From a bacterium (GTDB lineage Bacteria > Desulfobacterota > Deferrisomatia > Deferrisomatales > BM512), in the NCBI GenBank assembly GCA_004322275.1, contig SCTA01000040.1, positions 6,138 through 70,137 on the forward strand: DNA of 64,000 nucleotides. Reading direction: 5' to 3'. The translations under genes and the position numbers were made by a program. Position 1 is the stretch's first letter, and every line of letters starts with the position of its first letter. The notes beneath the pieces are model-generated. The model was not told the origin of the DNA. It made no database searches and worked only from the letters and a program-made list of their open reading frames with translations. Below are positions 7,636-52,033 of the stretch, one piece after another.

Positions 7636-8454
7636 CTACGATTCTACGATATTTTCGACCCTGAATATCTCGTTCGCAAGCCGTATCCACTGCGCCGAGT
7701 CCAACTCCTCCGGCCTTTCCGTTCCCTTCAGCCCCACCCTTTGCAGAACCTCGTCCCCTTCCCCGAGACGGTCCCTGAGGCAGTTTCTGAGCATCTTTCG
7801 CCTGTGCTGGAAGCTCTCTCCGACGATCGACCAGAGGGTCTCCTCGTCGTCGATGGGAAGCACGGTCTTCGAGAGAGGGTCGAGGCGTATCACGGCGGAT
7901 TCTACCTTCGGCGGAGGCCGGAAAGCGCCCGGAGGAACCTTCATAATTACTTTAACGTCGCAGAATATCTGGGCGAGCACGCTTAGGTTTCCGCGCACCC
8001 TGCCGCCCGGCCCGGCGGCAATCCTCTGGGCCACCTCTTTCTGGAACATGAGAGTCATCGACTTGAAGGCGCGGCGCTCTTTGAGCAGCAGAGCGAGGAG
8101 GGGGCCGGAGATGTTGTAGGGAAGATTGGCGACAAGCCGGAAGGGTTCCCCGGCGGATTTTGCGAGTTCTATGTAATCCGTCTTGAGGGCGTCGCCCTCG
8201 ATTATCTCCACCCCCTCGAAGCCGCCTTCCCGGAGGTGCTCGATCATCCGCCGGTCGGTCTCCACGGCCCAGACCCGCGCCCCGGCGTCGAGGAGCGCCC
8301 TTGTAAGTCCTCCCGGCCCCGGCCCTATCTCCAGCACCGCCTCGCCGGGAATTACCCCGGCCAGCCTTACGATTTTACCGAGAATGTTCTTGTCGAAGAG
8401 GAAGTGCTGACCGAGGGACTTTTTGGGCGAGGGAGCGAGTGGCGCAGCGCTCAT
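7636..8454 (-). CDS. rsmA: 16S rRNA (adenine1518/adenine1519-N6)-dimethyltransferase
   Basis: SLGQHFL and EIGPGPGGLT motifs of KsgA/RsmA. The track ORF is trimmed to the ATG at 8454 (MSAAPLAP...), which overlaps the tsaD stop as ATGA. The 67 upstream codons are Arg/Pro-rich and lie inside tsaD. Confidence 0.9.
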   Translation of the reverse strand: MSAAPLAPSPKKSLGQHFLFDKNILGKIVRLAGVIPGEAVLEIGPGPGGLTRALLDAGARVWAVETDRRMIEHLREGGFEGVEIIEGDALKTDYIELAKSAGEPFRLVANLPYNISGPLLALLLKERRAFKSMTLMFQKEVAQRIAAGPGGRVRGNLSVLAQIFCDVKVIMKVPPGAFRPPPKVESAVIRLDPLSKTVLPIDDEETLWSIVGESFQHRRKMLRNCLRDRLGEGDEVLQRVGLKGTERPEELDSAQWIRLANEIFRVENIVES

Positions 8455-9485
8455 CGGGCGGCGCTTTCTTCCAGCGGCCAGGTCGGGACGGCGTTGAGGC
8501 CGAGGTCCGCCCTCACCCCGGCGAGGAACCGGAGTCTTCCGGCCGAGGCGACCATCACCGCGTTGTCGGTGCAGTAGCGAGGCCGGGGAATCATGACGTT
8601 CAGACCTTTTCTTTGGGCCTCGTCGAGAAGCTTTTGGCGAAGGCGCGAGTTGCACGCAACGCCGCCGCAGACGACGATATCGCTGACCCCGGTGTGTTTA
8701 GCGGCCCGGACGGTCTTCTTGACGAGTACGTCCACCACCGCGTCCTGGAAGGAGGCGCAGGTGTCGAAAAGCTCCTGCCCTTCGAGGCCTTTAAGATACT
8801 TTTCAACGTGGGTGCGGAGGGCCGTCTTCAACCCCGAAAAGGAGAAGTCGAAGCCGCCTTTGTTCAGGAGCGGTCTCGGGAAATTGAAGCGCTTCGGGTC
8901 GCCCTTTTTGGCGAGATTGTCCACCACGACGCCGCCCGGATAGCCAAGCCCCAGTATCTTGGCTACCTTGTCGAAGGCCTCGCCCGCCGCGTCGTCCAGG
9001 GTCTGCCCTATCAACACGTACTTCCCCCCGCCGAGCGAGTGGTAGAGCGAGGTGTGACCGCCTGAGACCACGAGGCCGATGAAGGGCTTGTCGCCCCTGC
9101 CGCGCCAGCAATCCTCGACGAAAACCCCCGCGATGTGGGCCTCCAGGTGGTTTACGGGAACGAGGGGAATATCCGTCGCGAAGGAAAGGGCTTTCGCGAA
9201 ACTCACGCCGACCAGAAGCGCCCCCACTAGGCCGGGCCCCTGGGTTACGGCGATCGCCGAGAGCTCTTCGAGCGAAACCCCGGCCTTCAGAAGGGCTTCC
9301 GTCACTACGGGGATTATCGCCTCGGTGTGAGCCCTGCAAGCCAACTCGGGGACAACGCCGCCGTACCTGGCGTGTATCTCGTTCTGGCTCGCTACGACGT
9401 CCGAAAGCACCCCGCTCTCGCCGCGAAGGACCGCCGCGGCGGTCTCGTCGCAGGAGGATTCGATTGCCAGGATAAGGGTTTCCAA
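8451..9485 (-). CDS. tsaD: tRNA N6-adenosine threonylcarbamoyltransferase
   Basis: ILAIESSCDETAAAV, NHLEAHI and GGVACN motifs of the Kae1/TsaD family. The first codon at 9485 is TTG. Confidence 0.93.
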   Translation of the reverse strand: METLILAIESSCDETAAAVLRGESGVLSDVVASQNEIHARYGGVVPELACRAHTEAIIPVVTEALLKAGVSLEELSAIAVTQGPGLVGALLVGVSFAKALSFATDIPLVPVNHLEAHIAGVFVEDCWRGRGDKPFIGLVVSGGHTSLYHSLGGGKYVLIGQTLDDAAGEAFDKVAKILGLGYPGGVVVDNLAKKGDPKRFNFPRPLLNKGGFDFSFSGLKTALRTHVEKYLKGLEGQELFDTCASFQDAVVDVLVKKTVRAAKHTGVSDIVVCGGVACNSRLRQKLLDEAQRKGLNVMIPRPRYCTDNAVMVASAGRLRFLAGVRADLGLNAVPTWPLEESAAR

Positions 9486-9521: not shown

Positions 9522-9665
9522 GCTGAAGGCTGCAGAAAAACGTCGTGAGAAGCCCCGGTTACAAGGAGACGCGCAGCGAGAAGCGAGACATAACAGGGTG
9601 TTAGGCGAGCGCCGAGCGAGCACGCGACGCCGTAAACGGGGCTCGCAACAGTTTTTCTCAGCCTT
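9522..9665 (-). repeat. ~145-bp intergenic repeat element, copy 1 (subfamily A)
   Basis: Its reverse complement aligns with 41703-41848. The left arm (~50 nt, including GAAAAACTGTTGCGAGCCCCG and CGTCGCGTGCTCGCTC) and right arm (~65 nt, CTCGCTTCTCGCTGCGCGTCTCCTTG.AACCGGGGCTTCTC.CGACGTTTTTC) are nearly identical, while a ~26-nt centre differs. The termini are imperfect inverted repeats (GAAAAAC...GTTTTTC, CCCCG...CGGGG). Confidence 0.85.
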
Positions 9666-10985
9666 CTAAAGCAGTTCAGCCGCAAGTTCCGCAAGGTCCG
9701 AACGCTCTCCCTTGGTAAGGGTGACATGCGCGGAAGCGGTTTGCCCCTTGAACCTCTCGACGAGGAAACTCAGCCCATTACTGGTCGAATCGATGTAGGG
9801 GTTGTCGATCTGGTAGGGGTCGCCGGTGAGAACGATTTTCGTCCCCTCGCCCGCGCGGGTGATTATCGTCTTCACCTCGTGGGGGGTAAGGTTTTGCGCC
9901 TCGTCTACGATTATGTACTGGAAGGGGATGGAGCGGCCCCTGATGTAGGTCAGCGGCTCCAGCGCCATCATGTCCATCTCGATGAGTTCCTCGTAGCCCC
10001 TGCGCTTCTTGCCGTCGCGCCCCTCGACGCCCGCGAAGAGAAACTCCACGTTGTCGAAGATAGGCTGCATCCAGGGGCGTAGCTTCTCCTGCACATCGCC
10101 GGGGAGAAAGCCGATGTCTCTTCCCATCGGAAAGATCGGCCTGCTCACCAGCAGGCGCTTGTAGACCTGTTCTTCGACGGTCTTCTGAAGTCCCGCCGCA
10201 ATCGCCAGAAGGGTTTTTCCGGTTCCCGCCCTGCCCACCAGCGTCACGAGGTGGAGGTCGGGGTTCAAAAGGGCGTCGAGGGCGTATCTTTGCTCGCGGT
10301 TCTTCGGGTGAAGGCCCCAAATCTCTTTCGGGAGGCGCAGCGCGACCACCTCGCCGTTCTTTACGTGGCGTCCGAGGGCGGTATGGTTGGGGTCGGTCTC
10401 GTCGATTATGCTGACAAACTGATTCGGGTAAAGCCCTTCCCCCGCCCTGAGCTGAAGCCTGCCGTCCTTGAAGAAGGAATCCACGTCGGCCTTCGGCGCG
10501 TAAACGCTCTCGGTGCCGGTGTAGAGATCTTCGATGTTTGCGACCTTGCCGCGCTCGTAATCCTGGGCGTTCAGGCCGAGGGCGTTCGCCTTTATGCGAA
10601 GATTGGTATCCTTGGTGACGAAGACGACGGGCAGGCTCTCGTCCCGCATGAGGGCGAGGCAGACGGCCAGAATCCTGTTGTCCGCCTTTTCGCTGATGAG
10701 TTCCTTCGGCAGCAAGCTTACGGCGTCCGCGCCGAAGCTGACGCGCACGATGCCCTCGGCTGTTCCCAGACTCACCCCCTTGCGGAGGTCGCCGGTCTCC
10801 CGGAGCTTGTCGAGATAACGCGAAATTTGGCGGGCGTTTCTGCCCGTCTCGTCTACGTTTTTCTTGAACCTGTCTATTTCCTCTATTACCGAGATCGGGA
10901 TGTTGACGTTGTTTTCCTCGAAGGCGTGAATGGCTTCCGGGTCGTGGAGGAGGACGTTGGTGTCGAGGACGAAATTCTTGATCAT
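9666..10985 (-). CDS. PIN-domain / PhoH-like ATPase fusion (YlaK-type)
   Basis: N-terminal PIN (FVLDTNVLLHDP), Walker A GRAGTGKT, Walker B IIVDEAQN, and a PhoH-type C-terminus. Confidence 0.9.
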   Translation of the reverse strand: MIKNFVLDTNVLLHDPEAIHAFEENNVNIPISVIEEIDRFKKNVDETGRNARQISRYLDKLRETGDLRKGVSLGTAEGIVRVSFGADAVSLLPKELISEKADNRILAVCLALMRDESLPVVFVTKDTNLRIKANALGLNAQDYERGKVANIEDLYTGTESVYAPKADVDSFFKDGRLQLRAGEGLYPNQFVSIIDETDPNHTALGRHVKNGEVVALRLPKEIWGLHPKNREQRYALDALLNPDLHLVTLVGRAGTGKTLLAIAAGLQKTVEEQVYKRLLVSRPIFPMGRDIGFLPGDVQEKLRPWMQPIFDNVEFLFAGVEGRDGKKRRGYEELIEMDMMALEPLTYIRGRSIPFQYIIVDEAQNLTPHEVKTIITRAGEGTKIVLTGDPYQIDNPYIDSTSNGLSFLVERFKGQTASAHVTLTKGERSDLAELAAELL

Positions 10986-27924: not shown

Positions 27925-27988
27925 GTAGGGTGCGTTAGGCGAAGCCGTAACGCACCAGAGATTTGCTCGACGTTTTTTAACAGCCTCC
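27925..27988 (+). repeat. Composite intergenic repeat: palindromic hairpin module + right-terminal motif of subfamily A
   Basis: GTAGGGTGCGTTAGGCGAAGCCGTAACGCACC (hairpin 27930-27955) is followed by CTCGACGTTTTTTAACAGCCTCC. The latter matches the right end of the element at 41823-41845. Confidence 0.8.
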
Positions 27989-28010: not shown

Positions 28011-28271
28011 ATGAAAAAGTGGTTAAACATCGGTTTTATCGCGCTTTGCGCCCTGATTTTGATAGTTCTCTGGAACGCGCCCCCCGAAACCACCAAGAAA
28101 ACGCCGAACGACAAGACCCACGAGAACCCCAGGCAGTTCGAGCGCTGCCCCTCATGCCACATCGAGGGAACCGAAGGCGCACCCAAAGTCCTTCCCGACC
28201 ACCTCAACAGGGAGGGGAAGCTGATGTTGGACCACGTTAAATGTTATATGTGCCACAAGGAGAAGAAGTAA
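28011..28271 (+). CDS. Small membrane-anchored diheme c-type cytochrome
   Basis: 86 aa with an N-terminal TM helix and two CXXCH sites (CPSCH, CYMCH). An AAAGAGG Shine-Dalgarno lies upstream. Confidence 0.75.
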   Translation: MKKWLNIGFIALCALILIVLWNAPPETTKKTPNDKTHENPRQFERCPSCHIEGTEGAPKVLPDHLNREGKLMLDHVKCYMCHKEKK

Positions 28272-28319: not shown

Positions 28320-28452
28320 CGGCTTCGGCTTTTGCCGCGGGGCGAAGCCTGCCCTCGGAATCTTTTACCGGGGGTCGCTACTCGCTCGCGCTCCTCGACG
28401 TAGTCACGCTACTATCTTCGTCGCGCTCACTGCGGGCTCCTCGCCCGGCGAC
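28320..28452 (+). repeat. Intergenic repeat, subfamily B copy
   Basis: It shares CGGCTTC..GGCGAAG..CGCGCTCCTCG.CGTA....TAC....TCGTCGCGC....CTGCGG.CTCCT.GCCC with 44350-44454 (reverse complement; by my by-eye count about three quarters of the right ~60 nt match) and more loosely with 53406-53506. Confidence 0.6.
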
Positions 28453-29533: not shown

Positions 29534-29570
29534 TATCGGTGCGTTACGGCTTCGCCTAACGCAACCTACG
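29534..29570 (-). repeat. Palindromic hairpin module, inverted copy
   Basis: Its reverse complement CGTAGGTTGCGTTAGGCGAAGCCGTAACGCACCGATA is nearly identical to 27925-27956 and related to 28547-28586. Confidence 0.8.
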
Positions 29571-39049: not shown

Positions 39050-41359
39050 GTGAAAAAACCGTTTGAGAGAAGATTTTTAAGAGTCTCCGGCATCGTGCAG
39101 GGGGTGGGGTTCCGCCCCTTCGCGGCCCGGCTCGCGGGCGGCCTCGGGCTGACGGGGCAGGTCGCCAACACCACCCGGGGGGTGGAGATCGAGATTCAGG
39201 GCAAAAAAGCCGTCCTCGACGAGTTCTGCAGCCGCCTTGAACGCGAACTTCCCCCCGTCGCCCTGATCCTCGGCGTAGAGTGCGAAAACATTTCTCCCGT
39301 TTCCGGCGAAAACTCCTTTAAAATCGTCTCCTCGCGCACCGACCCGGTCTCCTCGGTGATAATCCCCCCGGACATCGCCACCTGCCCTAAATGTCTGGCG
39401 GAACTTCTCGACCCCTCGGACCGGCGCTTCGGTTATCCCTTCATCAACTGCACCGATTGCGGCCCGCGCTATACGATTATCGAAAAAACCCCCTATGACC
39501 GCCCCAACACCTCGATGGCGGGTTTTACAATGTGCCCGGCGTGCGAGACGGAGTACGAAGCGCCGCAAAGTAGGCGCTTTCACGCGCAGCCCAACGCCTG
39601 CCCCGCCTGCGGCCCATCGCTTTGGGCTCTCGACGGCTCGGGAGAGAGAATAGATTCTGAACCGGTCGCCGAAGCCGCAAGGATCCTCTCCTCGGGGGGC
39701 ATAGTCGCCCTTCTCGGAATCGGGGGTTTCCACCTCGCCTGCGACGCGGCGAACGAAGACGCCGTCACCCTCCTTCGCCGAAGAAAGAAGCGGCCGGGAA
39801 AGCCCTTCGCGGTGATGGCGGACTCCATGAAGACCGCCAGGAGCGCGGGCAGGCTGTCGCAGGGCTCCGAGAGGGAGCTTGCGGGCCCTTGGGCGCCGAT
39901 TGTCCTTTGCCCGTCAAGGGAGACCTCGCCGGTCACCCCCTCCGTCGCGCCGGGGCAAAACACCGTGGGGCTCTTCCTTCCCTACGCACCCCTCCACCAC
40001 CTTCTCTTTAAAGACGAAGGTTCGCCCCGCCTGCTGGTAATGACCAGCGGCAACCGGAGCGACGAACCGCTTATCTCCACTGTGAAAGAGGCGCTTGAAA
40101 AACTCGGCGGGGTCGCCGACCTCTTTTTGGTCCACGACCGCCCGATAATCCACCCGGTGGACGATTCGGTGCTAAAGGATATGGGGTCGCTGGGAGTTGT
40201 GGCTGTCAGAAGGGCGAGGGGCTACGCCCCCAGGCCCGTTCCTGTGAAGGGAAAGAACCCCGGAACGGTTCTGGCGGTGGGTGCGGAGCTTATGAGCGCG
40301 GTGACGGTCCTGCAGGGCGGCCTCGCCTTCGTGGGCTCACATGTGGGTGACCTCAAAAACCTCGAAACCGAGGAGTACTTCCGAAGGGGAGTAACCCACC
40401 TTCTGGAGCTGCTGCGGGCCAGGCCAGTCCTCGCCGCCTGCGACCTCCACCCCTCTTACCGCTCGACGGCTTTCGCCGAAGAATACTCAGCCGAAGAGTC
40501 CATCCCCCTCCTTCGCATCCAGCACCACGAGGCGCACGGGGCGGGGTGCATGGCCGAAAACTCCTTCACCGGCGAGGGAGTGGTTCTGGCTCTCGACGGC
40601 GTCGGCTACGGCCACGACGGGACGATCTGGGGGGGAGAGATTCTGACCGGCAAGCCCGGCTCCTTCTCCCGCAAGGCGCACCTTCTGCCAGTCCCCCAGC
40701 CGGGAGGCGACAGCGCGGCGCTGGAACCCTGGAGGATGGCGGCCTCGCACCTTCGCCTTATCGCGGGAAGCGGCTGGAAGGAGCTGCCTCTGGGCATTTT
40801 CAGAGGAAAGACGCCTGAGGAGTTGACGACTCTGGATGCGATGATGGAAAAGGGGCTGGGTTCCCCCCTCACCTCCTCCTGCGGCAGGCTTTTCGACTCG
40901 GCCGCCGCCATTGCCCTCGGCATTGAGGGGCGGATACTCTATTCGGCGCAGGGGCCGATGGAACTGGAAGCCGCCGCTTCGCGCTCGCTCTCTTCGAGAA
41001 ATTACCCGGAGGGAAAGATAACCCCCGACGGCTCGAAGTTTATAATCGACCCCTCTCCCCTCCTTCAGGCTCTTCTGGACGACGCGCTGAAAAACCGCGA
41101 CAAGTCCGCGATGGCCAGAAGCTTTCACGAGGCGCTGGCGAAGACCTTTTTTACGGCGGCAAAGAGCGTCGCGGAAAGAGAAGGGCTGAATGACGTTTTT
41201 CTCACGGGCGGCTGCTTTTTCAACTCGATTCTCGCCGAATCGCTAAAGCTCATGCTGGAAAAAGAGGGGCTCAAGGTCCACCACCACCGCCTGATACCCC
41301 CCGGCGACGGCGGAATATCCTACGGCCAGGCTAGCTGGATCGCGCTCAAGGGCTCCTAG
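39050..41359 (+). CDS. hypF: [NiFe]-hydrogenase maturation carbamoyltransferase
   Basis: It has an acylphosphatase domain (VSGIVQGVGFRPF), two zinc-finger pairs (CPKC...CTDCGPRYT, CPAC...CPACGP), a YrdC-like domain and a Kae1-like C-terminal domain. I propose a GTG start at 39050, after the terminator. Confidence 0.92.
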   Translation: MKKPFERRFLRVSGIVQGVGFRPFAARLAGGLGLTGQVANTTRGVEIEIQGKKAVLDEFCSRLERELPPVALILGVECENISPVSGENSFKIVSSRTDPVSSVIIPPDIATCPKCLAELLDPSDRRFGYPFINCTDCGPRYTIIEKTPYDRPNTSMAGFTMCPACETEYEAPQSRRFHAQPNACPACGPSLWALDGSGERIDSEPVAEAARILSSGGIVALLGIGGFHLACDAANEDAVTLLRRRKKRPGKPFAVMADSMKTARSAGRLSQGSERELAGPWAPIVLCPSRETSPVTPSVAPGQNTVGLFLPYAPLHHLLFKDEGSPRLLVMTSGNRSDEPLISTVKEALEKLGGVADLFLVHDRPIIHPVDDSVLKDMGSLGVVAVRRARGYAPRPVPVKGKNPGTVLAVGAELMSAVTVLQGGLAFVGSHVGDLKNLETEEYFRRGVTHLLELLRARPVLAACDLHPSYRSTAFAEEYSAEESIPLLRIQHHEAHGAGCMAENSFTGEGVVLALDGVGYGHDGTIWGGEILTGKPGSFSRKAHLLPVPQPGGDSAALEPWRMAASHLRLIAGSGWKELPLGIFRGKTPEELTTLDAMMEKGLGSPLTSSCGRLFDSAAAIALGIEGRILYSAQGPMELEAAASRSLSSRNYPEGKITPDGSKFIIDPSPLLQALLDDALKNRDKSAMARSFHEALAKTFFTAAKSVAEREGLNDVFLTGGCFFNSILAESLKLMLEKEGLKVHHHRLIPPGDGGISYGQASWIALKGS

Positions 41360-41667
41360 AAAACCACGCCCCTCACGCATTTTTTGTTGTGGTAAACCGT
41401 GGGATAACCCCTGCAAACTTCCGGCTTCGCGTCGTGTATCCCGCAGACGGCGCGATCCGGTCCTTCGCGCACGATGAAAGGGCAGGCTTCCTGCCTCGAA
41501 CCGTCGCTCTTCACCCAGAGAGCGCCGTCCTCGCCCACCGCCGAGAGGATGTCCGCTCGCCCCTCCTTACGCCATCGTTCCAGGTCGCTTTGGGAAGCCG
41601 TGAGCGCCGCCCCATAAAGATCGCAGCAGATACCGCAGGCGACACAGCCGTTATTTTTTTCAGTCAT
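41356..41667 (-). CDS. YkgJ-family zinc/iron-chelating protein (CxxCxxCC)
   Basis: GCVACGICCDLYG motif. It is trimmed to the ATG at 41667, because the track ORF's extra 60 codons run through the repeat at 41703-41848. The 3' end overlaps the hypF stop by 4 nt (convergent genes). Confidence 0.75.
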   Translation of the reverse strand: MTEKNNGCVACGICCDLYGAALTASQSDLERWRKEGRADILSAVGEDGALWVKSDGSRQEACPFIVREGPDRAVCGIHDAKPEVCRGYPTVYHNKKCVRGVVF

Positions 41668-41702
41668 GGCTTTACCCCCTGTAAATCTGGTATTTTCCCT
41701 TC

Positions 41703-41848
41703 GGAGGCTTTGAAAAACTGTTGCGAGCCCCGTTTTCTGCGTCGCGTGCTCGCTCAAAGCTCGGCGTATTAAACTATACTGCCTCGCTTCTCGCTGCGCG
41801 TCTCCTTGAAACCGGGGCTTCTCTCGACGTTTTTCAACAGCCTCCAAG
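41703..41848 (+). repeat. ~145-bp intergenic repeat element, copy 2 (subfamily A)
   Basis: See 9522-9665. The arms are identical apart from a few mismatches, and the central ~27 nt differ (AAAGCTCGGCGTATTAAACTATACTGC here). Confidence 0.85.
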
Positions 41849-43022: not shown

Positions 43023-43379
43023 ATGGAAACCATTGTAAGACCCCTCGACGTAATCGGGGTGTACATCGACGAAAAGCTCGCCTTCTTCGCGAGGGTCGAG
43101 GAGATATCTCCCGACGTAAAACCGGGATGGCGGAAAATGCGCTTTTTAATCCTCAACCCGGCTATCGAAGAGCGCGAAATGACCTGGATACTGCAACCCT
43201 CGCAGATAAACGGCGAACCCTACTCGATGGAGGGCATTCCCGTCCGCATCGAGCGTCTACCCGACCCAGTCCCGGCCGCAACTGAGTCTCCCCCCGAAGA
43301 GGAGCCTCCCGCCCGTAAGGAAAAAACGGAAAAAACCGCGAGAGTGATAGAGTTTCCGGGCCGGAGAGAGAAACATTGA
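43023..43379 (+). CDS. Hypothetical protein
   Basis: 118 aa, sandwiched with 1-nt and 4-nt junctions between the CYTH and RluA-family genes. No motif was recognised. Confidence 0.5.
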   Translation: METIVRPLDVIGVYIDEKLAFFARVEEISPDVKPGWRKMRFLILNPAIEEREMTWILQPSQINGEPYSMEGIPVRIERLPDPVPAATESPPEEEPPARKEKTEKTARVIEFPGRREKH

Positions 43380-44332
43380 AAAGAGAAGGTGAAAGAAAGA
43401 GCGCCCCGAGGCAGTCGAGGATACAGGGAACGCCCTTCACCGTGGTCTACGAGGACAAGGACATCCTCGTGGCCAACAAGAAGGCGGGCATCCTGACGGT
43501 TCCAATTCCCGGAAAGAGCTCGAAGAACCTCGAAGAGATAATCAACAATTACCTCCTCTCCCAGAAACGCTCGGCGCAGGCCGTACACCGCATAGACCGC
43601 TTCACCTCCGGCCTCGTCGTCTTCGGCAAGGGGAGAAACGCCTGGGGCAAGCTGGTGGAGCAGTTTAAGGAGCACACCCCCGAGCGCGTCTACCTCGCGG
43701 TGGTGCGCGGCGTTCCCAGGAAGGACGAGGGCACCCTCCGCCACCAGCTAAAGCTGACCAAGAACGGCTTTCGCCAGCTTGTAGTGAAAACCGACGGCAC
43801 ACTAGCGATAACCCACTACAAGGTTCTGGAGAAATTCGACGGCGCTTCGCTTCTTGAGGTGCGCCTTGAGACCGGCCTCAAAAACCAGATTCGCGTCCAG
43901 TTCCGGGCCATCGGCAATCCGCTGGTCGGCGACCGCCACTACAGCCCCGGCGAGGAGGAAGAGGTGCTGCTCGATCGTCAGGCCCTTCACGCCTGGAAAC
44001 TGTCCTTCAAGCACCCCACCGAGGGCAGGATAGTCTCCTTTGAAGCCCCTCTCCCGCAGGACATGGAGTCGCTGATCGCGCGGCTCCGCAAAGGCGGCGC
44101 CAAAAGAAAAGAAGCTCCCCAAGCGAAAGATACTCCTTCGCGTAAAGAAACCGCTCCGAGGAAAGAGGCTCCTCCGAAGAAGGAAGCCCCTCCGAAGAAG
44201 GAAGCCCCTCCGAAGAAGGAAGCCCCTCCGAAGAAAGAAGCCCCTCCGAAGAAAGAGCCGCCAAACAGGTTCAAAAAATCGATGCGCGGAGAGCCTGTCA
44301 AGAAGAAGCGTACGGCGAGGGTCAAGCCGTAA
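43376..44332 (+). CDS. RluA-family pseudouridine synthase with KKEAPP-repeat tail
   Basis: Catalytic motif HRIDRFTSGLVVFGK and the NQIRVQF motif. The C-terminal ~70 aa is Lys/Pro/Glu-rich with five tandem KKEAPP units. Confidence 0.88.
   Translation: MKREGERKSAPRQSRIQGTPFTVVYEDKDILVANKKAGILTVPIPGKSSKNLEEIINNYLLSQKRSAQAVHRIDRFTSGLVVFGKGRNAWGKLVEQFKEHTPERVYLAVVRGVPRKDEGTLRHQLKLTKNGFRQLVVKTDGTLAITHYKVLEKFDGASLLEVRLETGLKNQIRVQFRAIGNPLVGDRHYSPGEEEEVLLDRQALHAWKLSFKHPTEGRIVSFEAPLPQDMESLIARLRKGGAKRKEAPQAKDTPSRKETAPRKEAPPKKEAPPKKEAPPKKEAPPKKEAPPKKEPPNRFKKSMRGEPVKKKRTARVKP
44145..44262 (+). repeat. Coding 18-bp tandem repeat (KKEAPP x5-6)
   Basis: GAAGCCCCTCCGAAGAAG is reiterated head-to-tail with minor variants. 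Confidence 0.85.
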
Positions 44333-44349
44333 TTTCCGGCAAACTATTT

Positions 44350-44454
44350 CGGTGAAGGGCAAGGAGTCCGCAGGGCGCGCGACGAGCAGTACCGTTTATA
44401 CGGCGAGGAGCGCGCCCGAGAAACGACGCCGCCCTTCGCCGAAAGAGGAAGCCG
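44350..44454 (-). repeat. Intergenic repeat, subfamily B copy
   Basis: Its reverse complement aligns with 28320-28452 (shared blocks CGGCTTC, GGCGAAG, CGCGCTCCTCG, TCGTCGCGC, CTGCGG.CTCCT.GCCC). It fills the gap between two convergent genes. Confidence 0.6.
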
Positions 44455-44457
44455 GAC

Positions 44458-45741
44458 TTAGAGGTTGGCTCCGTAGATAAGAACGTTTTCCGGTATCACC
44501 TGCCCGCTCGGCTGATGCCTCCACTCCCTCCTCTCCAGCGCGAAGGGAATGTACAAAAGGCGCGCGCGCAGAATCCTGAACTCCGTAGTGGCGATCAGCG
44601 GCAGCCGGTTTTTCTTGTCCATAACCATTGACGAAAGGATTACCGGGAGGGCTTCGACCGCCTCCTTCAGCGAAAGCCTCACCGGCTCCGCGTTTATCTT
44701 CCCCTTCTCGGGCCTCGGCGGGCCGTGTTCGCCGGTAAAAAAGAGGGTGGCGATCTTTCCGAGGCGCAGGAATATCTTAGATTTTATCTTGAAACCCGGG
44801 ATCAGGGCCGAGCAGTTGTCCGAACCCCACTCTTTAGGCGTTATCCGGTAGGGGGTGGCCCAGAGGGCGAGGTCAGCCCTGCTCTTGAGCCCTATGGACT
44901 CCGCCGAAAAGTCCAGCTGCCAGAAGGGGAAGAGCCTCTGCCCCTCTCCCAGTTCGCCGAGAAGGGCAAAGGGCATCTCTCCGAACTTCTCTCCCCTCGT
45001 CCACCAGGCCTTCGCGCAGTTCGGGCACAGAAGCACCTCCGCGCCGTGGTCGGGGGGCAGAGCCCCCGCGCAATTGGGGCAGATGAGCGGCAAAAACCTC
45101 ATCGGGGCGTGGTTTCCGGCCTTTCCCAGCGCCTCTTTAAGCGCGCCCGCTTCACCCTGAGTGAGGCAGTACTGCCGCCCGTCCGGAAAAGCCTCCCGGA
45201 GACAGACTTTTTCCCCTTCCTCCCTGAGCGCGAAAGGGGCGTGGACGATTACGGCGGTCTCGCCGATGAGCCGGGACATGAGCTGGTCCACGCGCACGCC
45301 GAAGACCTTGTCCACGGCGCTGCCGTCGATGGCTTTTTCCACGGGGATGTCGGTTTGAGGGGTGTTTTTGGGCCAGTTGGTGAGGGTGAGCTGCCAGGCC
45401 TGGGGGCGCACGCCCAGACTCACCCCCTCAGGCAGGAGGGAGGTGGCGGGGGCGGTGGAATCGAGAAGATGGGCCTCGACCTCGCCCGTTTCGCTGAAGA
45501 CCTTGTAGCGGAGGCCCTTCAACCTCCAGAAGGGCAGGTAGATTATCTCCTCCCCTCGAAACTCGTCTACGACGGGCAGGCGGTAACCGAGCGGGCCGTC
45601 CTGAACTATGTAGAGGCTGGTTTTACAGTAGCGGCAGGAGAGGACCCTGTCGCCCACTTCGACTTCGACCTTGGCCCCGCACTGCGGGCAGGTCCCGACT
45701 GCTTCCCAAGCGGGGGAATTGCCTGACTCTTCCTCCGCCAC
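44458..45741 (-). CDS. Hypothetical protein with internally duplicated zinc-ribbon module
   Basis: There are two copies of [CPxCG...CxxC ribbon followed by an aromatic PFW motif]: CPQCGAKV...CRYCKT...YLPFWRL and CPNCAGAL...CPNCAKAWW...LFPFWQL. Confidence 0.6.
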   Translation of the reverse strand: MAEEESGNSPAWEAVGTCPQCGAKVEVEVGDRVLSCRYCKTSLYIVQDGPLGYRLPVVDEFRGEEIIYLPFWRLKGLRYKVFSETGEVEAHLLDSTAPATSLLPEGVSLGVRPQAWQLTLTNWPKNTPQTDIPVEKAIDGSAVDKVFGVRVDQLMSRLIGETAVIVHAPFALREEGEKVCLREAFPDGRQYCLTQGEAGALKEALGKAGNHAPMRFLPLICPNCAGALPPDHGAEVLLCPNCAKAWWTRGEKFGEMPFALLGELGEGQRLFPFWQLDFSAESIGLKSRADLALWATPYRITPKEWGSDNCSALIPGFKIKSKIFLRLGKIATLFFTGEHGPPRPEKGKINAEPVRLSLKEAVEALPVILSSMVMDKKNRLPLIATTEFRILRARLLYIPFALERREWRHQPSGQVIPENVLIYGANL

Positions 45742-50048: not shown

Positions 50049-50963
50049 CTACCCTCCCCTCGGATGGTGCTTTTTTACCATAGTGCGCAGGTGGTCGCGC
50101 GAAAGGTGGGTGTAAATCTGGGTGGTCGAGAGGTCGGCGTGGCCGAGCATCATCTGGAGGCTGCGAAGATCCGCCCCGCCCTCCAGAAGGTGGGAGGCGA
50201 AGGAGTGGCGCAGGGTGTGGGGGCTGGTGTCGCCGGGGATCCCGGCCCTCCGGCACCCTTCCTTCACCAGCTTCCAGGCGCTCTGCCGAGAGATGGCCTT
50301 GCCGAACCTGTTAAGGAAGAGTACGTCGGTCGCCCTCTTTCCCTTGGCGAAAGCGGGCCTTCCCCCCGCGAGGTAAAGCTCTATCGCTTCCTTGGCCCTC
50401 TTGCCTATCGGGACTACCCTCTCCTTGGAGCCTTTGCCCATAGTTCTGATAAAGCCGGCGTTCAGCTCCACCCCCGCTATCCTAAGCGAGCATATTTCCG
50501 ATACCCTGAGGCCGGCGCCGTAGAGGAGCTCCAGCATCGCCCTGTCCCGAAGCCCCTTCGGAGTACTCCCCTCGGGGCTCTCCACAAGCGCCTCGGCCTG
50601 TTCCCGCGTCAGGGTCTTGGGGAGGGAGCGCCACTGGCGGAGGGATTCGAGCCTTTCCATCGGGCTTTTGTCCGTAATCCCCTCGCGTATGAGAACCTTG
50701 TAGAAGGTGCGAAGGGCCGACATCCTGCGGGCCATCGACCGGGGTTCAATACCGCGCAGGCTCTCGGATTTGAGAAAGTCCATCACGTCTCTGGCCTGAG
50801 CCTTCTCCGGCGGGATGTTTCCGCTCTTTTTGAGCGCGGTGAAGAAAGCCCGCAGGTCGCGGGCGTAGGCGTCCACGGTGTTTTTTGAAAGCGAGCGCTC
50901 GACGATGAGGTAATTGAGGAAAAAATCCAGAAGATTGTCGGGAGACTTTGCGTCTCCCCTCAT
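50049..50963 (-). CDS. xerD: Tyrosine recombinase, XerC/XerD family (XerD-like C-terminus)
   Basis: HTLRHSFASHLLEGGADLRSLQMMLGHADLSTTQIYTH...HHPR. The ATG at 50963 overlaps the TGA of the upstream kinase gene (ATGA). Confidence 0.85.
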   Translation of the reverse strand: MRGDAKSPDNLLDFFLNYLIVERSLSKNTVDAYARDLRAFFTALKKSGNIPPEKAQARDVMDFLKSESLRGIEPRSMARRMSALRTFYKVLIREGITDKSPMERLESLRQWRSLPKTLTREQAEALVESPEGSTPKGLRDRAMLELLYGAGLRVSEICSLRIAGVELNAGFIRTMGKGSKERVVPIGKRAKEAIELYLAGGRPAFAKGKRATDVLFLNRFGKAISRQSAWKLVKEGCRRAGIPGDTSPHTLRHSFASHLLEGGADLRSLQMMLGHADLSTTQIYTHLSRDHLRTMVKKHHPRGG

Positions 50964-52033
50964 ATCTCGCAAGTCATGCCCCTGGGAAGTTCGATGGTTA
51001 CGACCGTGCCCTTGCCCAGCTCGCTGCGGATGTAGACCTCCCCCTGGTGGTGGCCCACGATGCGGTGAACCATGGTAAGGCCCATCCCCGCACCGGACAT
51101 CTTGGAGGTGAAGAAGGGGTCGAAGACGTGGTCTAGGTCGTTGGGGGCTATGCCGCGCCCGTTGTCGGAGACGTTGATCAGTATTTTGTCTTTCCGGGAG
51201 GGGTCTATCTCAATTTTGATCTCTCCGCCGTGGTCCATCGCCTCTACGGAGTTCTCTATGAGGGCTTCCAGGGCCAGCTTGAGGTTCTTGCCGTCGCCGA
51301 AAATGACCGTCTCCCCTTTTCCGGCTTCGACCGTAGCCTTCACCTTCGCCTTTTCAAGCTGTTCTTTTTTCCCCTCTATCGCCCATTTCGCCACGTCCAC
51401 GAGATTTATCGGGGTTCTTGGCTCCGCGATCAGGGTCTTGAAGGAGACGATGGCGTTGACCATGTTCTCCAGCCTCTCGACCTCCTGAATGATGTGGGTG
51501 GTGTACTCGCGCAGGGGATCGGTGGGCGGAAGCGCCATGTGGATTCGCCGCGCGAAGCCGCCGATGGCCACCATCGGGTTTCTGACCTCGTGGGCGACTC
51601 CCTCCGCCATCAGCCCGAGGGCGCCCATCTTTTCCCTCACGACGCGCTTGGCCTCGCCCTGCCTGCGCTTTATGAGCATCCTCACTCTCGCCGCAAGCTC
51701 CCGGGGGTTGAAGGGCTTGGTCATGTAGTCGTCCGCGCCGATGCCGAGCCCTTTTTCCTTGTCGGGAACGTCGGCCTTGGAGGTAAGGAGAATTACGGGA
51801 ATGGAGTTTGTAGCGGGATTGGATTTTATGCGCCTGCAGACCTCGAAGCCGTCCATTCTCGGCATGACGACGTCGAGGACGACGAGATCGGGGTTGAACG
51901 ATTCTACCTTCTCCAGAGCCTCTACGCCGTCGTGGGCCACCTCGACTTCGTAACCGACGGATTTGAGGTGCTCCGCAAGGAGATCGGCGTTATCGACATT
52001 GTCGTCCACCACCAGAACTTTTTCAGGATTCAT
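50960..52033 (-). CDS. Hybrid response regulator / histidine kinase (REC-HisKA-HATPase_c)
   Basis: N-terminal receiver (VLVVDDN...VVLDVVMP), H-box GVAHEVRNPM, and N/G boxes (DNGRGI, GAGMGL). There is no TM or sensor domain. Confidence 0.88.
   Translation of the reverse strand: MNPEKVLVVDDNVDNADLLAEHLKSVGYEVEVAHDGVEALEKVESFNPDLVVLDVVMPRMDGFEVCRRIKSNPATNSIPVILLTSKADVPDKEKGLGIGADDYMTKPFNPRELAARVRMLIKRRQGEAKRVVREKMGALGLMAEGVAHEVRNPMVAIGGFARRIHMALPPTDPLREYTTHIIQEVERLENMVNAIVSFKTLIAEPRTPINLVDVAKWAIEGKKEQLEKAKVKATVEAGKGETVIFGDGKNLKLALEALIENSVEAMDHGGEIKIEIDPSRKDKILINVSDNGRGIAPNDLDHVFDPFFTSKMSGAGMGLTMVHRIVGHHQGEVYIRSELGKGTVVTIELPRGMTCEI

Follow-up and report, generated by a model that had tools for sequence, protein, structure and literature searches.

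A dispersed palindromic repeat, probably mobile, in intergenic DNA of a bacterium related to the Deferrisomatales

Results

Two full copies and one fragment of a non-coding element lie in intergenic DNA

In the window, that is, the whole 64-kb stretch of DNA that was analysed, a gene encoding a PIN-PhoH (PhoH2-like) protein (9666-10985, minus strand) lies upstream of tsaD (8451-9485, minus strand, with a TTG start codon at 9485), and the next gene past tsaD encodes an rRNA adenine dimethylase of the RrnaAD, rsmA/ksgA type (7636-8655, minus strand). The spacer between phoH and tsaD holds a first copy of the element, hereafter copy A. The terminal repeat of copy A begins with the last base of the phoH stop codon, the G of TAG, and the start codon of tsaD, together with the AAGGAA upstream of it, is intact despite the presence of the insertion.

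The second copy, copy B, has a small CxxCxxCC-domain gene on its left (41356-41667, minus strand, ATG at 41667), at a distance of 35 nt from that ATG, and a plus-strand gene encoding a CPBP/Rce1-like protein on its right. The start of the latter may be placed either at ATG 41920 or at TTG 41875; the first-pass annotation, which had been made from the sequence alone, gave the TTG, but the ATG appears to be the more likely start, since GGAGAA precedes it. The same annotation had pointed out that the copies lie in the sense orientation at a short distance from a start codon. Because the CPBP start has been revised and copy B has a divergent neighbour whose ATG is equally close, a constant distance to the start codon does not hold, and the orientation of the element is not a distinguishing feature.

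At a third site, a solitary right terminus of the element is located 22 nt upstream of an ORF encoding a small dihaem cytochrome (28011-28271), which carries the motifs CPSCH and CYMCH. This terminus is fused to an unrelated, REP-like repeat with a GTAG-hairpin, GTAGGGTGCGTTAGGCGAAGCCGTAACGCACC (27925-27956), a second and inverted copy of which is found at 29538-29569. In the RAYT and REP literature, a REP is a short imperfect palindrome that is often preceded by GTAG or GTGG. The window holds a classic-looking GTAG-hairpin REP that exists separately from the element. A short derivative of the element had previously been placed at 27925-27988; we could retain the part from 27954 to 27988, which matches the element, while 27925-27956 corresponds to the different GTAG-hairpin repeat. 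Also in the window, a 125-nt hairpin is located at 44333-44457. A sliding scan of minimum free energy was dominated by GC content, and this hairpin was the only one to stand out. The existence of these other palindromic families, the GTAG-hairpin with its two copies and the 44333-44457 hairpin, suggests that the genome tolerates or propagates elements of this kind.

Table 1. Coordinates of the element copies and of their parts in the window
Feature	Position	Strand	Remarks
Copy A, full element, 142 nt	9525..9666	-	Between the PIN-PhoH stop codon and tsaD
Copy A, left arm	9614..9666	-	Terminal inverted repeat GAAGGCTGAGAAAAAC at 9651-9666
Copy A, divergent centre, 26 nt	9588..9613	-	Tip stem-loop TAACA-CCC-TGTTA
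Copy A, right arm	9525..9587	-	Terminal inverted repeat GTTTTTCTGCAGCCTTC at 9525-9541
Copy B, full element, 143 nt	41703..41845	+	Between the divergent CxxCxxCC-domain and CPBP/Rce1-like genes
Copy B, left arm	41703..41755	+	Terminal inverted repeat GGAGGCTTTGAAAAAC at 41703-41718
Copy B, divergent centre, 27 nt	41756..41782	+	Tip stem-loop GGCGTAT-TAAAC-TATACTGCC
Copy B, right arm	41783..41845	+	Terminal inverted repeat GTTTTTCAACAGCCTCC at 41829-41845
Solo right terminus, ACCAGAGATTTGCTCGACGTTTTTTAACAGCCTCC	27954..27988	+	83% identity with the corresponding end of copy B; without left arm and without centre

The arms are conserved and the centre is strongly diverged

Copies A and B could be aligned end to end (reverse complement of 9522-9669 against 41700-41848). 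A profile built from both of them recovered both, with E-values of 3.6e-50 for 9522-9669 (minus strand) and 1.4e-51 for 41700-41848 (plus strand), in agreement with the two copies of ~145 bp that had been noticed at first sight. With the same profile, no full copy other than these two was detected in the 64-kb window, the only additional match being the partial right end at the third site (E = 0.009). The boundaries of the copies listed in Table 1 were obtained by trimming the aligned segments to the inverted termini.

Comparison of the two copies showed that 5 out of 53 positions differ in the left arm and 5 out of 62 in the right arm (91-92% identity), so that the arms deserve their earlier description as near-identical. 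Exact arm blocks of 23-26 nt were each present twice in the window, against an expectation of 0 according to shuffled sequences. The centre is far more diverged than the arms. It had been described as unrelated between the copies, which is right as to the strong divergence and too strict as to the wording, given that 14 of the 27 columns (~52%) are identical. Each of the two centres is unique, without a second occurrence in the window. The copies are separated by 32 kb, have opposite orientations and are surrounded by unrelated genes; the similarity between them ends exactly at the ends of the palindrome, their flanks are not shared, and they have no 31-mer in common.

Each copy is a whole-length palindrome predicted to fold into one long hairpin

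Both copies are imperfect palindromes along their whole length, with ~80% self-complementarity: when the left half was aligned with the reverse complement of the right half, 53 of 65 positions matched in copy A and 54 of 67 in copy B. The termini had been recognised from the outset as imperfect inverted repeats. They measure 16-17 nt (Table 1) and continue into the whole-length palindrome. When folded as RNA, the element gave a single long hairpin of -64.7 kcal/mol for copy A (z = -4.9) and of -66.8 kcal/mol for copy B (z = -7.6), and the opposite strand was equally stable (-61.0 and -67.5 kcal/mol, respectively). Folding as single-stranded DNA yielded z-scores of -3.7 (copy A) and -5.1 (copy B). 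The proposal that RNA or DNA could adopt a long hairpin is therefore sustained by the folds of both strands and of single-stranded DNA. In both the RNA and the DNA folds, pairing takes place between the arms, and neither arm folds upon itself. Despite their 52% identity, both centres are self-complementary, and each of them closes the hairpin with a tip stem-loop of its own. The 35-nt solo terminus of the third site cannot form the hairpin.

The consensus structure comprised 44 pairs, all of them present in both copies. Six of the 10 differences between the arms corresponded to three compensatory pairs, one A-U/G-C change at the outermost stem and two A-U/U-A changes, and 0 compensatory pairs remained in a control in which the partners were slid by 1-3 columns. 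The covariation shuffle control gave 56 out of 500, and a comparison of two sequences only is inherently weak; consequently, the covariation between the arms is regarded as suggestive.

With respect to coding potential, no ORF with a match in the protein databases was found in the 142-143 nt of the element, and comparison of the six-frame translations of both copies with 5.8 billion proteins returned nothing at E <= 10. The element is dispersed, non-coding and palindromic.

The phoH-tsaD spacer of the closest available relative lacks the element

The PhoH protein encoded next to copy A is 100% identical to the NCBI MAG protein TAL15648.1, and the same protein is encoded on a Logan contig assembled from SRR8426595. 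Beyond these identical sequences, the best matches showed 86% and 74% identity, followed by Deferrisomatales proteins at ~72-74%. A 9.4-kb JGI contig also encodes a protein that is at least 90% identical to this PhoH. The closest available relative, with the PhoH that is 86% identical, is contig SRXB01000100.1 of GCA_009724975.1, and it shares the gene order aminotransferase, DUF1178, SPASM, aminotransferase, phoH, tsaD and RrnaAD dimethylase. The spacer between phoH and tsaD is 180 nt long here versus 36 nt in GCA_009724975.1. This difference of 144 nt corresponds to the element, that is, copy A accounts for all the extra length of the spacer. The flank ...TTCA-AGCTG... can be aligned across the gap, the sequence TTCAGCTG... 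that follows the element matches TTTCAAGCTG... in the spacer of the relative, and both PhoH proteins end in ...AAELL*. Judged by alignment to this one relative, at 86% protein identity, copy A is an insertion with respect to the closest available genome.

In an independent Logan assembly of this organism, the contig ends within the element, 100 nt beyond the phoH stop codon. Breaks of this sort are typical of repeats, yet copies A and B lack any common 31-mer, and the break gives a mere hint of further copies. A consistent target-site duplication was not found at copies A and B. Two candidates were discarded: CTGC at copy A is at odds with the ...AAELL* terminus, which is conserved in PhoH, and ATTTT at copy B requires boundaries located 6-7 nt further out.

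Searches for further copies, parental elements and enzymes

Exact-seed scans of 185,579 representative genomes and of JGI metagenomes did not reveal any other full copy. A 21-mer of the left arm had 0 matches in the representative genomes and 0 in the JGI metagenome contigs. A 19-mer of the right arm produced 62 single matches in unrelated high-GC genomes, which were discarded because the profile showed that they were chance matches limited to the seed. Three seed scans of viral contigs gave 0 matches, blastn against plasmid and phage collections gave none, and the element was also absent from the ~430 nt of the contig that extend beyond the right edge of the window. Exact-seed scans of public collections did not detect an insertion sequence with the same ends that might be the parent of the element. 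Owing to this absence from the collections scanned, the family appears to be confined to one sparsely sampled lineage.

Among the ORFs of the 64-kb window, scans with Pfam and NCBIfam models identified no transposase genes, and specifically none of the RAYT/Y1, IS200/IS605 or IS110 (PF01548/PF02371) types, and no integron integrase. The sole tyrosine recombinase of the window (50049-50972) is XerD, with 357.8 bits for a cut-off of 329.6, and it scores far below the cut-offs for integron integrases. Rfam 15 yielded 0 hits at the gathering thresholds, and scans with permissive E-values only produced weak chance matches to eukaryotic families, in keeping with the first impression that the element is not a known RNA family. 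A scan for promoter consensus sequences found nothing attributable to the element. Intrinsic terminators, taken as short GC-rich stem-loops with a T-run immediately after them, were absent from copy A, and the scan of copy B found just an internal stem of 5 bp (41813-41826), within the expectation from shuffled sequences.

Discussion

We propose that the element is probably a lineage-restricted, non-autonomous palindromic repeat that resembles MITEs in being small and devoid of genes and REPINs in its architecture, and that inserted in intergenic DNA. This reading as a mobile repeat is based on the sharp-edged dispersed copies, the empty site, the lack of coding capacity, the full hairpin, the matched changes in the arms and the self-pairing centre, with the caveat that the copies visible are two full ones and one fragment within 64 kb. 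A MITE-like or REP-like mobile repeat was one of the possibilities raised by the first-pass annotation, and it gains from the unrelated gene contexts, the opposite orientations, the empty site, the palindrome and the absence of coding sequence. According to this proposal, a candidate trans-acting enzyme encoded elsewhere in the genome would copy or move the element, and its target of recognition would be either the hairpin in its folded single-stranded form or the pair of identical ends. Recognition of this type would account for the matched changes of the two arms, and for a centre that is free to drift as long as it pairs with itself. The lack of a target-site duplication would fit enzymes that leave none, such as those of the HUH/RAYT, IS200/IS605 or IS110 types. 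As copy A lies in the phoH-tsaD transcription unit, the RNA hairpin that would be transcribed from it is best seen as a by-product. An influence of this hairpin on mRNA stability or read-through is possible, but such an effect would be secondary and not the reason for the existence of the element.

REPINs are doublets of REP sequences that form hairpins and are mobilised by RAYT transposases, with a spacer that is less conserved than the highly conserved inverted ends on both sides of it (Bertels & Rainey 2011, PMC3116915). The element resembles them in having conserved inverted ends with a spacer that is constrained apparently only in length and pairing, in the hairpin that the whole element forms as single-stranded DNA or RNA, in the compensatory changes, in its extragenic location and in the existence of single truncated ends as decay products. 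It differs from them in its length of ~143 nt with conserved arms of 53-63 nt, whereas REPINs measure ~90 nt with REPs of ~25 nt, in that its arms lack a clear internal REP palindrome and its termini lack GTAG, and in that there is no RAYT gene in the window. A genome with REPINs is expected to hold tens to hundreds of them, together with a cognate single-copy RAYT gene that the repeats flank; two copies in 64 kb would extrapolate to many, which does not count as evidence for such a number.

Bacterial MITEs comprise Correia/CREE, ERIC, Nezha and the Chunjie element of Geobacter uraniireducens, among others reviewed in PMC3184786. With 142-143 nt, the element is within the size expected of a MITE (less than ~400 bp, without a transposase or a real ORF). 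It is also like several MITEs in being shorter than 200 bp, in having terminal inverted repeats around a non-coding core, in its very stable stem-loop, in its intergenic or intra-operon position and in that an empty orthologous site can be demonstrated, here for one copy and in one relative. In contrast, the flanking direct repeats that are the classic signature of MITEs (TA in Correia- and ERIC-like elements, 9 bp in Chunjie) are absent or inconsistent at the element, its sequence is not similar to Correia/CREE, ERIC, Nezha or Chunjie, as judged by the lack of matches in the plasmid and phage collections and in Rfam, and no parent IS with matching ends was found in the public collections scanned. 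For these reasons, namely the longer arms, the lack of an internal REP palindrome and of a RAYT, and the lack of a consistent duplication, we file the element as MITE/REPIN-like and as a member of neither group.

One alternative is compatible with this proposal and would name the enzyme. The element might be a hairpin landing pad that an IS110-family element (guided by a bridge RNA or seekRNA) targets near its centre, or else a non-autonomous derivative moved by the recombinase; we consider this unlikely. The arms would then act as a structural 'gate' and the divergent centre as the recombination point for a bridge-RNA-guided recombinase of this family, a division of roles that we also regard as doubtful. 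REP hairpins are known targets of IS110-family elements (PMC1525189), and a stem-loop in the DNA at the target is reported to be necessary for ISPpu10 (bioRxiv 10.64898/2026.03.19.712850). The hairpins targeted by IS110 and IS1111 elements (PMC1525189; PMC11187229) are, like our element, intergenic hairpin repeats; the differences are that the window contains no IS110 gene, that neither copy is interrupted and that the resemblance is limited to ~15-23 nt. Nor does the element qualify as an IS110-family end or a bridge RNA, for which a DEDD recombinase gene would have to be adjacent and the non-coding RNA would lie in the end of the IS; what it resembles is DNA that flanks such insertion sequences in other organisms.

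The resemblance came to light in a metagenome scan with a degenerate pattern of the right terminus, which gave a single match, at 230-252 of locus L065. The first base of the match is also the final base in the stop codon of a PAP2-like gene, so that the match abuts a gene stop codon as copy A does, and it lies 50 nt from the stop codon of an IS110-family transposase. Homologues of this transposase (82-91% identical) in other contexts define the subterminal inverted repeats of the IS, CTTCGAGACGG... and ...CCGTCTCGAAG, and according to these ends the L065 23-mer is located 8 nt outside the right subterminal repeat. In three loci with further copies of the same IS clade, found via the transposase (L067, L070 and L075), a similar motif, a T-run followed by CA(A/G)C.G.CT, is present 9-13 nt outside CTCGAAG, and this motif had no other occurrence in the ~600 kb of DNA that we examined. 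L067 also carries an inverted partner, CAGCCCGTTGAAAAAGG, on the other flank, which would place the IS in the middle of a hairpin, as would fit the insertion of IS110 elements into REP hairpins and the stem-loop need of ISPpu10. Against this link, ~0.5-2 chance matches are expected for the seed pattern by our own estimate, and the similarity of L065 beyond the seed is weak (p ~0.03-0.04) and crosses the boundary between the IS and its flank, on account of which we no longer treat it as real homology. Moreover, an unbiased profile of the window element misses L067, L070 and L075, the motif expression was written after the sites had been seen, L066 and L068 do not have the motif, L075 has no left partner, the motif of L070 is inside a rearranged left-end region, and the soil contigs come from unrelated organisms. 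The link between the window element and the IS110 flanks must accordingly be considered fragile. If it were true, the terminal motif GTTTTTCA(A/G)C(A/G)GCCT would connect a Deferrisomatales-like genome with IS110 insertion sites in unrelated soil bacteria.

A cis-acting structured RNA was the other possibility raised at the start, with the variable centre as a specificity segment. The element would then be a 5'-UTR or intercistronic module, or an attenuator or terminator, whose hairpin controls the downstream gene and whose variable tip provides specificity. Several features are those expected from such an RNA: the hairpin is very stable, copy A is inside a co-directional gene pair and should hence be transcribed, the stem is bordered by an A-run and a T-run, as bidirectional terminators are, GGAGG and CCTCC at the two termini pair with each other, and some of the changes between the arms are compensatory. 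However, the genes downstream (tsaD, the CPBP protease and the dihaem cytochrome) are unrelated, the phoH-tsaD pair of GCA_009724975.1 does without the element, and the antisense strand folds equally well, without any strand preference. In addition, copy B occupies a divergent promoter region and is as near to the ATG of the other gene, the third site keeps 35 nt that are unable to form the hairpin, no Rfam family matches, and neither a consensus promoter nor a canonical terminator arises from the whole element. In view of the unrelated genes, the empty site, the folding of both strands, the divergent context and the Rfam result, the suggested RNA module, with its specificity centre, is not upheld, and we find this role quite improbable.

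It is very improbable that the element is not mobile at all and that the copies arose by a one-off segmental duplication, by gene conversion or as terminator-like hairpins that evolved independently. Such origins would agree with the existence of only two known full copies and with the lack of target-site duplications and of a transposase in the window, but the similarity stops at the ends of the palindrome without shared flanks, the copies face opposite ways at a distance of 32 kb, a truncated end is present at a third locus, convergence cannot give 91% identity over 115 nt, the empty site differs by precisely 144 nt, and the Logan assembly breaks inside the element.

Integron attC sites have the core sites R'' and R' with the consensus RYYYAAC and GTTRRRY, and they are expected in cassette arrays of a single orientation with intI, or in a CALIN cluster. 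A reading of the element as an attC-like single-strand recombination site for a tyrosine recombinase, with conserved R and L boxes and a variable tip, can be rejected as extremely improbable on core-site sequence and genomic context. The element does share with attC sites an imperfect palindrome in which the ends are conserved and the terminal structure varies, and its unequal arm lengths leave bulged bases. However, GAAAAAC and GTTTTTC retain no more of that consensus than the triplets AAC and GTT, the two copies do not form a cassette array but are found among housekeeping genes, oppositely oriented and with 32 kb between them, and XerD, the window's only tyrosine recombinase, is not an integron integrase.

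Returning to the non-autonomous palindromic repeat that we favour, its confirmation would bring to light a family of palindromic mobile repeats that is lineage-specific and was not catalogued before, from a poorly sampled branch related to the Deferrisomatales. It does not open a long-standing question, and a wider reach would come only through the possible, and weak, connection with target choice by IS110 elements and their bridge RNAs. In practical terms, the repeat could be used to flag assembly breaks and to type strains, and it would warn annotators that a hairpin of this kind should not be taken for a regulatory RNA. It would also provide a small example of an insertion within the phoH-tsaD pair, just upstream of tsaD.

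IS110-family elements

The soil-metagenome contigs carry a clade of IS110-family elements with subterminal inverted repeats of ~27 nt (CTTCGAGACGG... and ...CCGTCTCGAAG). A T-run followed by the motif CA(A/G)C.G.CT was found in four of the six right flanks, positioned 9-13 nt outside the subterminal repeat, and in one contig (L067) an IS of this family sits at the centre of a hairpin. In four contigs (L070, L071, L072 and L074), copies of one IS110-family element have a left end 27-31 nt beyond the right end, with a spacer that varies among contexts. L070 also contains a rearranged left end that encloses an internal segment made up of ...CGTCTCGAAG and the motif. These right-end/left-end pairs reflect one of two arrangements: copies in tandem, or circle junctions that were captured.

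Location of the repeats, genes and IS110-family sites (window positions, unless a Logan contig, L001, or a contig with IS110-family elements, L065-L075, is named)
Feature	Position	Strand	Basis or remark
GTAG-hairpin repeat, copy 1	27925-27956	+	
GTAG-hairpin repeat, copy 2	29538-29569	-	
Small ORF, putative dihaem c-type cytochrome	28011-28271	+	signal-anchor sequence, two CXXCH motifs
Pseudouridine-synthase gene	43376-44332	+	
Tandem repeat, 18-nt period, ~9 units	44108-44269		3′ part of pseudouridine-synthase ORF
Long hairpin, 125 nt, intergenic	44333-44457		DNA fold
ORF	44458-45741	-	
Tyrosine recombinase	50049-50972	-	XerD, TIGR02225, 357.8 bits, above cut-off
Logan contig segment within copy A	L001 11321-11420 = window 9566-9665		
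IS110-family clade, sites	L065 230-302; L066 2656, 4446; L067 201, 1856; L068 56, 1777; L075 640, 2340		soil metagenomes
IS110-family right end then left end	L070 2154-2330; L071 1487-1700; L072, L074 after transposase stop		

Other repeats and genes in the window

A second repeat, unrelated to the 143-bp element, is present within the window in two inverted copies lying 1.6 kb apart, on either side of the cytochrome/methyltransferase region. Its sequence, GTAGG(G/T)TGCGTTAGGCGAAGCCGTAACGCACC, consists of a 5′ GTAG followed by a hairpin with a 9-bp stem and looks like a classic REP sequence; copy 1 adjoins the solo end (right terminus only) of the 143-bp element. The small ORF of this region had been taken for a cytochrome in the first-pass annotation, a proposal that is plausible: though no Pfam match was obtained, the predicted product carries a signal-anchor sequence and the motifs CPSCH and CYMCH, as would a dihaem c-type cytochrome.

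The intergenic hairpin between the convergent pseudouridine-synthase gene and neighbouring ORF folds as DNA at -38.5 kcal/mol (z -5.95), and part of it has an inverted 77% match at 28371-28413. This hairpin may belong to one more family of palindromic repeats, or it may be a terminator that works in both directions. The tandem repeat inside the pseudouridine-synthase ORF is built of AAGGAAGCCCCTCCGAAG and its variants and encodes a low-complexity, K-E-A-P-P-K-like tail. The tyrosine recombinase was ruled out as an integron integrase, given that it scores as XerD.

A close PhoH relative and the Logan contig

A 440-aa PhoH protein (P0241), encoded on a 9,397-bp JGI metagenome contig, is at least 90% identical to the PhoH of the window, and its source is a relative closer than GCA_009724975.1, the closest genome in our comparison. 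The 18.4-kb Logan contig SRR8426595_29430, from the same organism as the window, terminates within copy A of the 143-bp element at ...CTCGCTGCGCGTCTC. Since the contig breaks there even though copies A and B have no 31-mer in common, the break suggests that more copies resembling A exist, or that strains within the sample vary.
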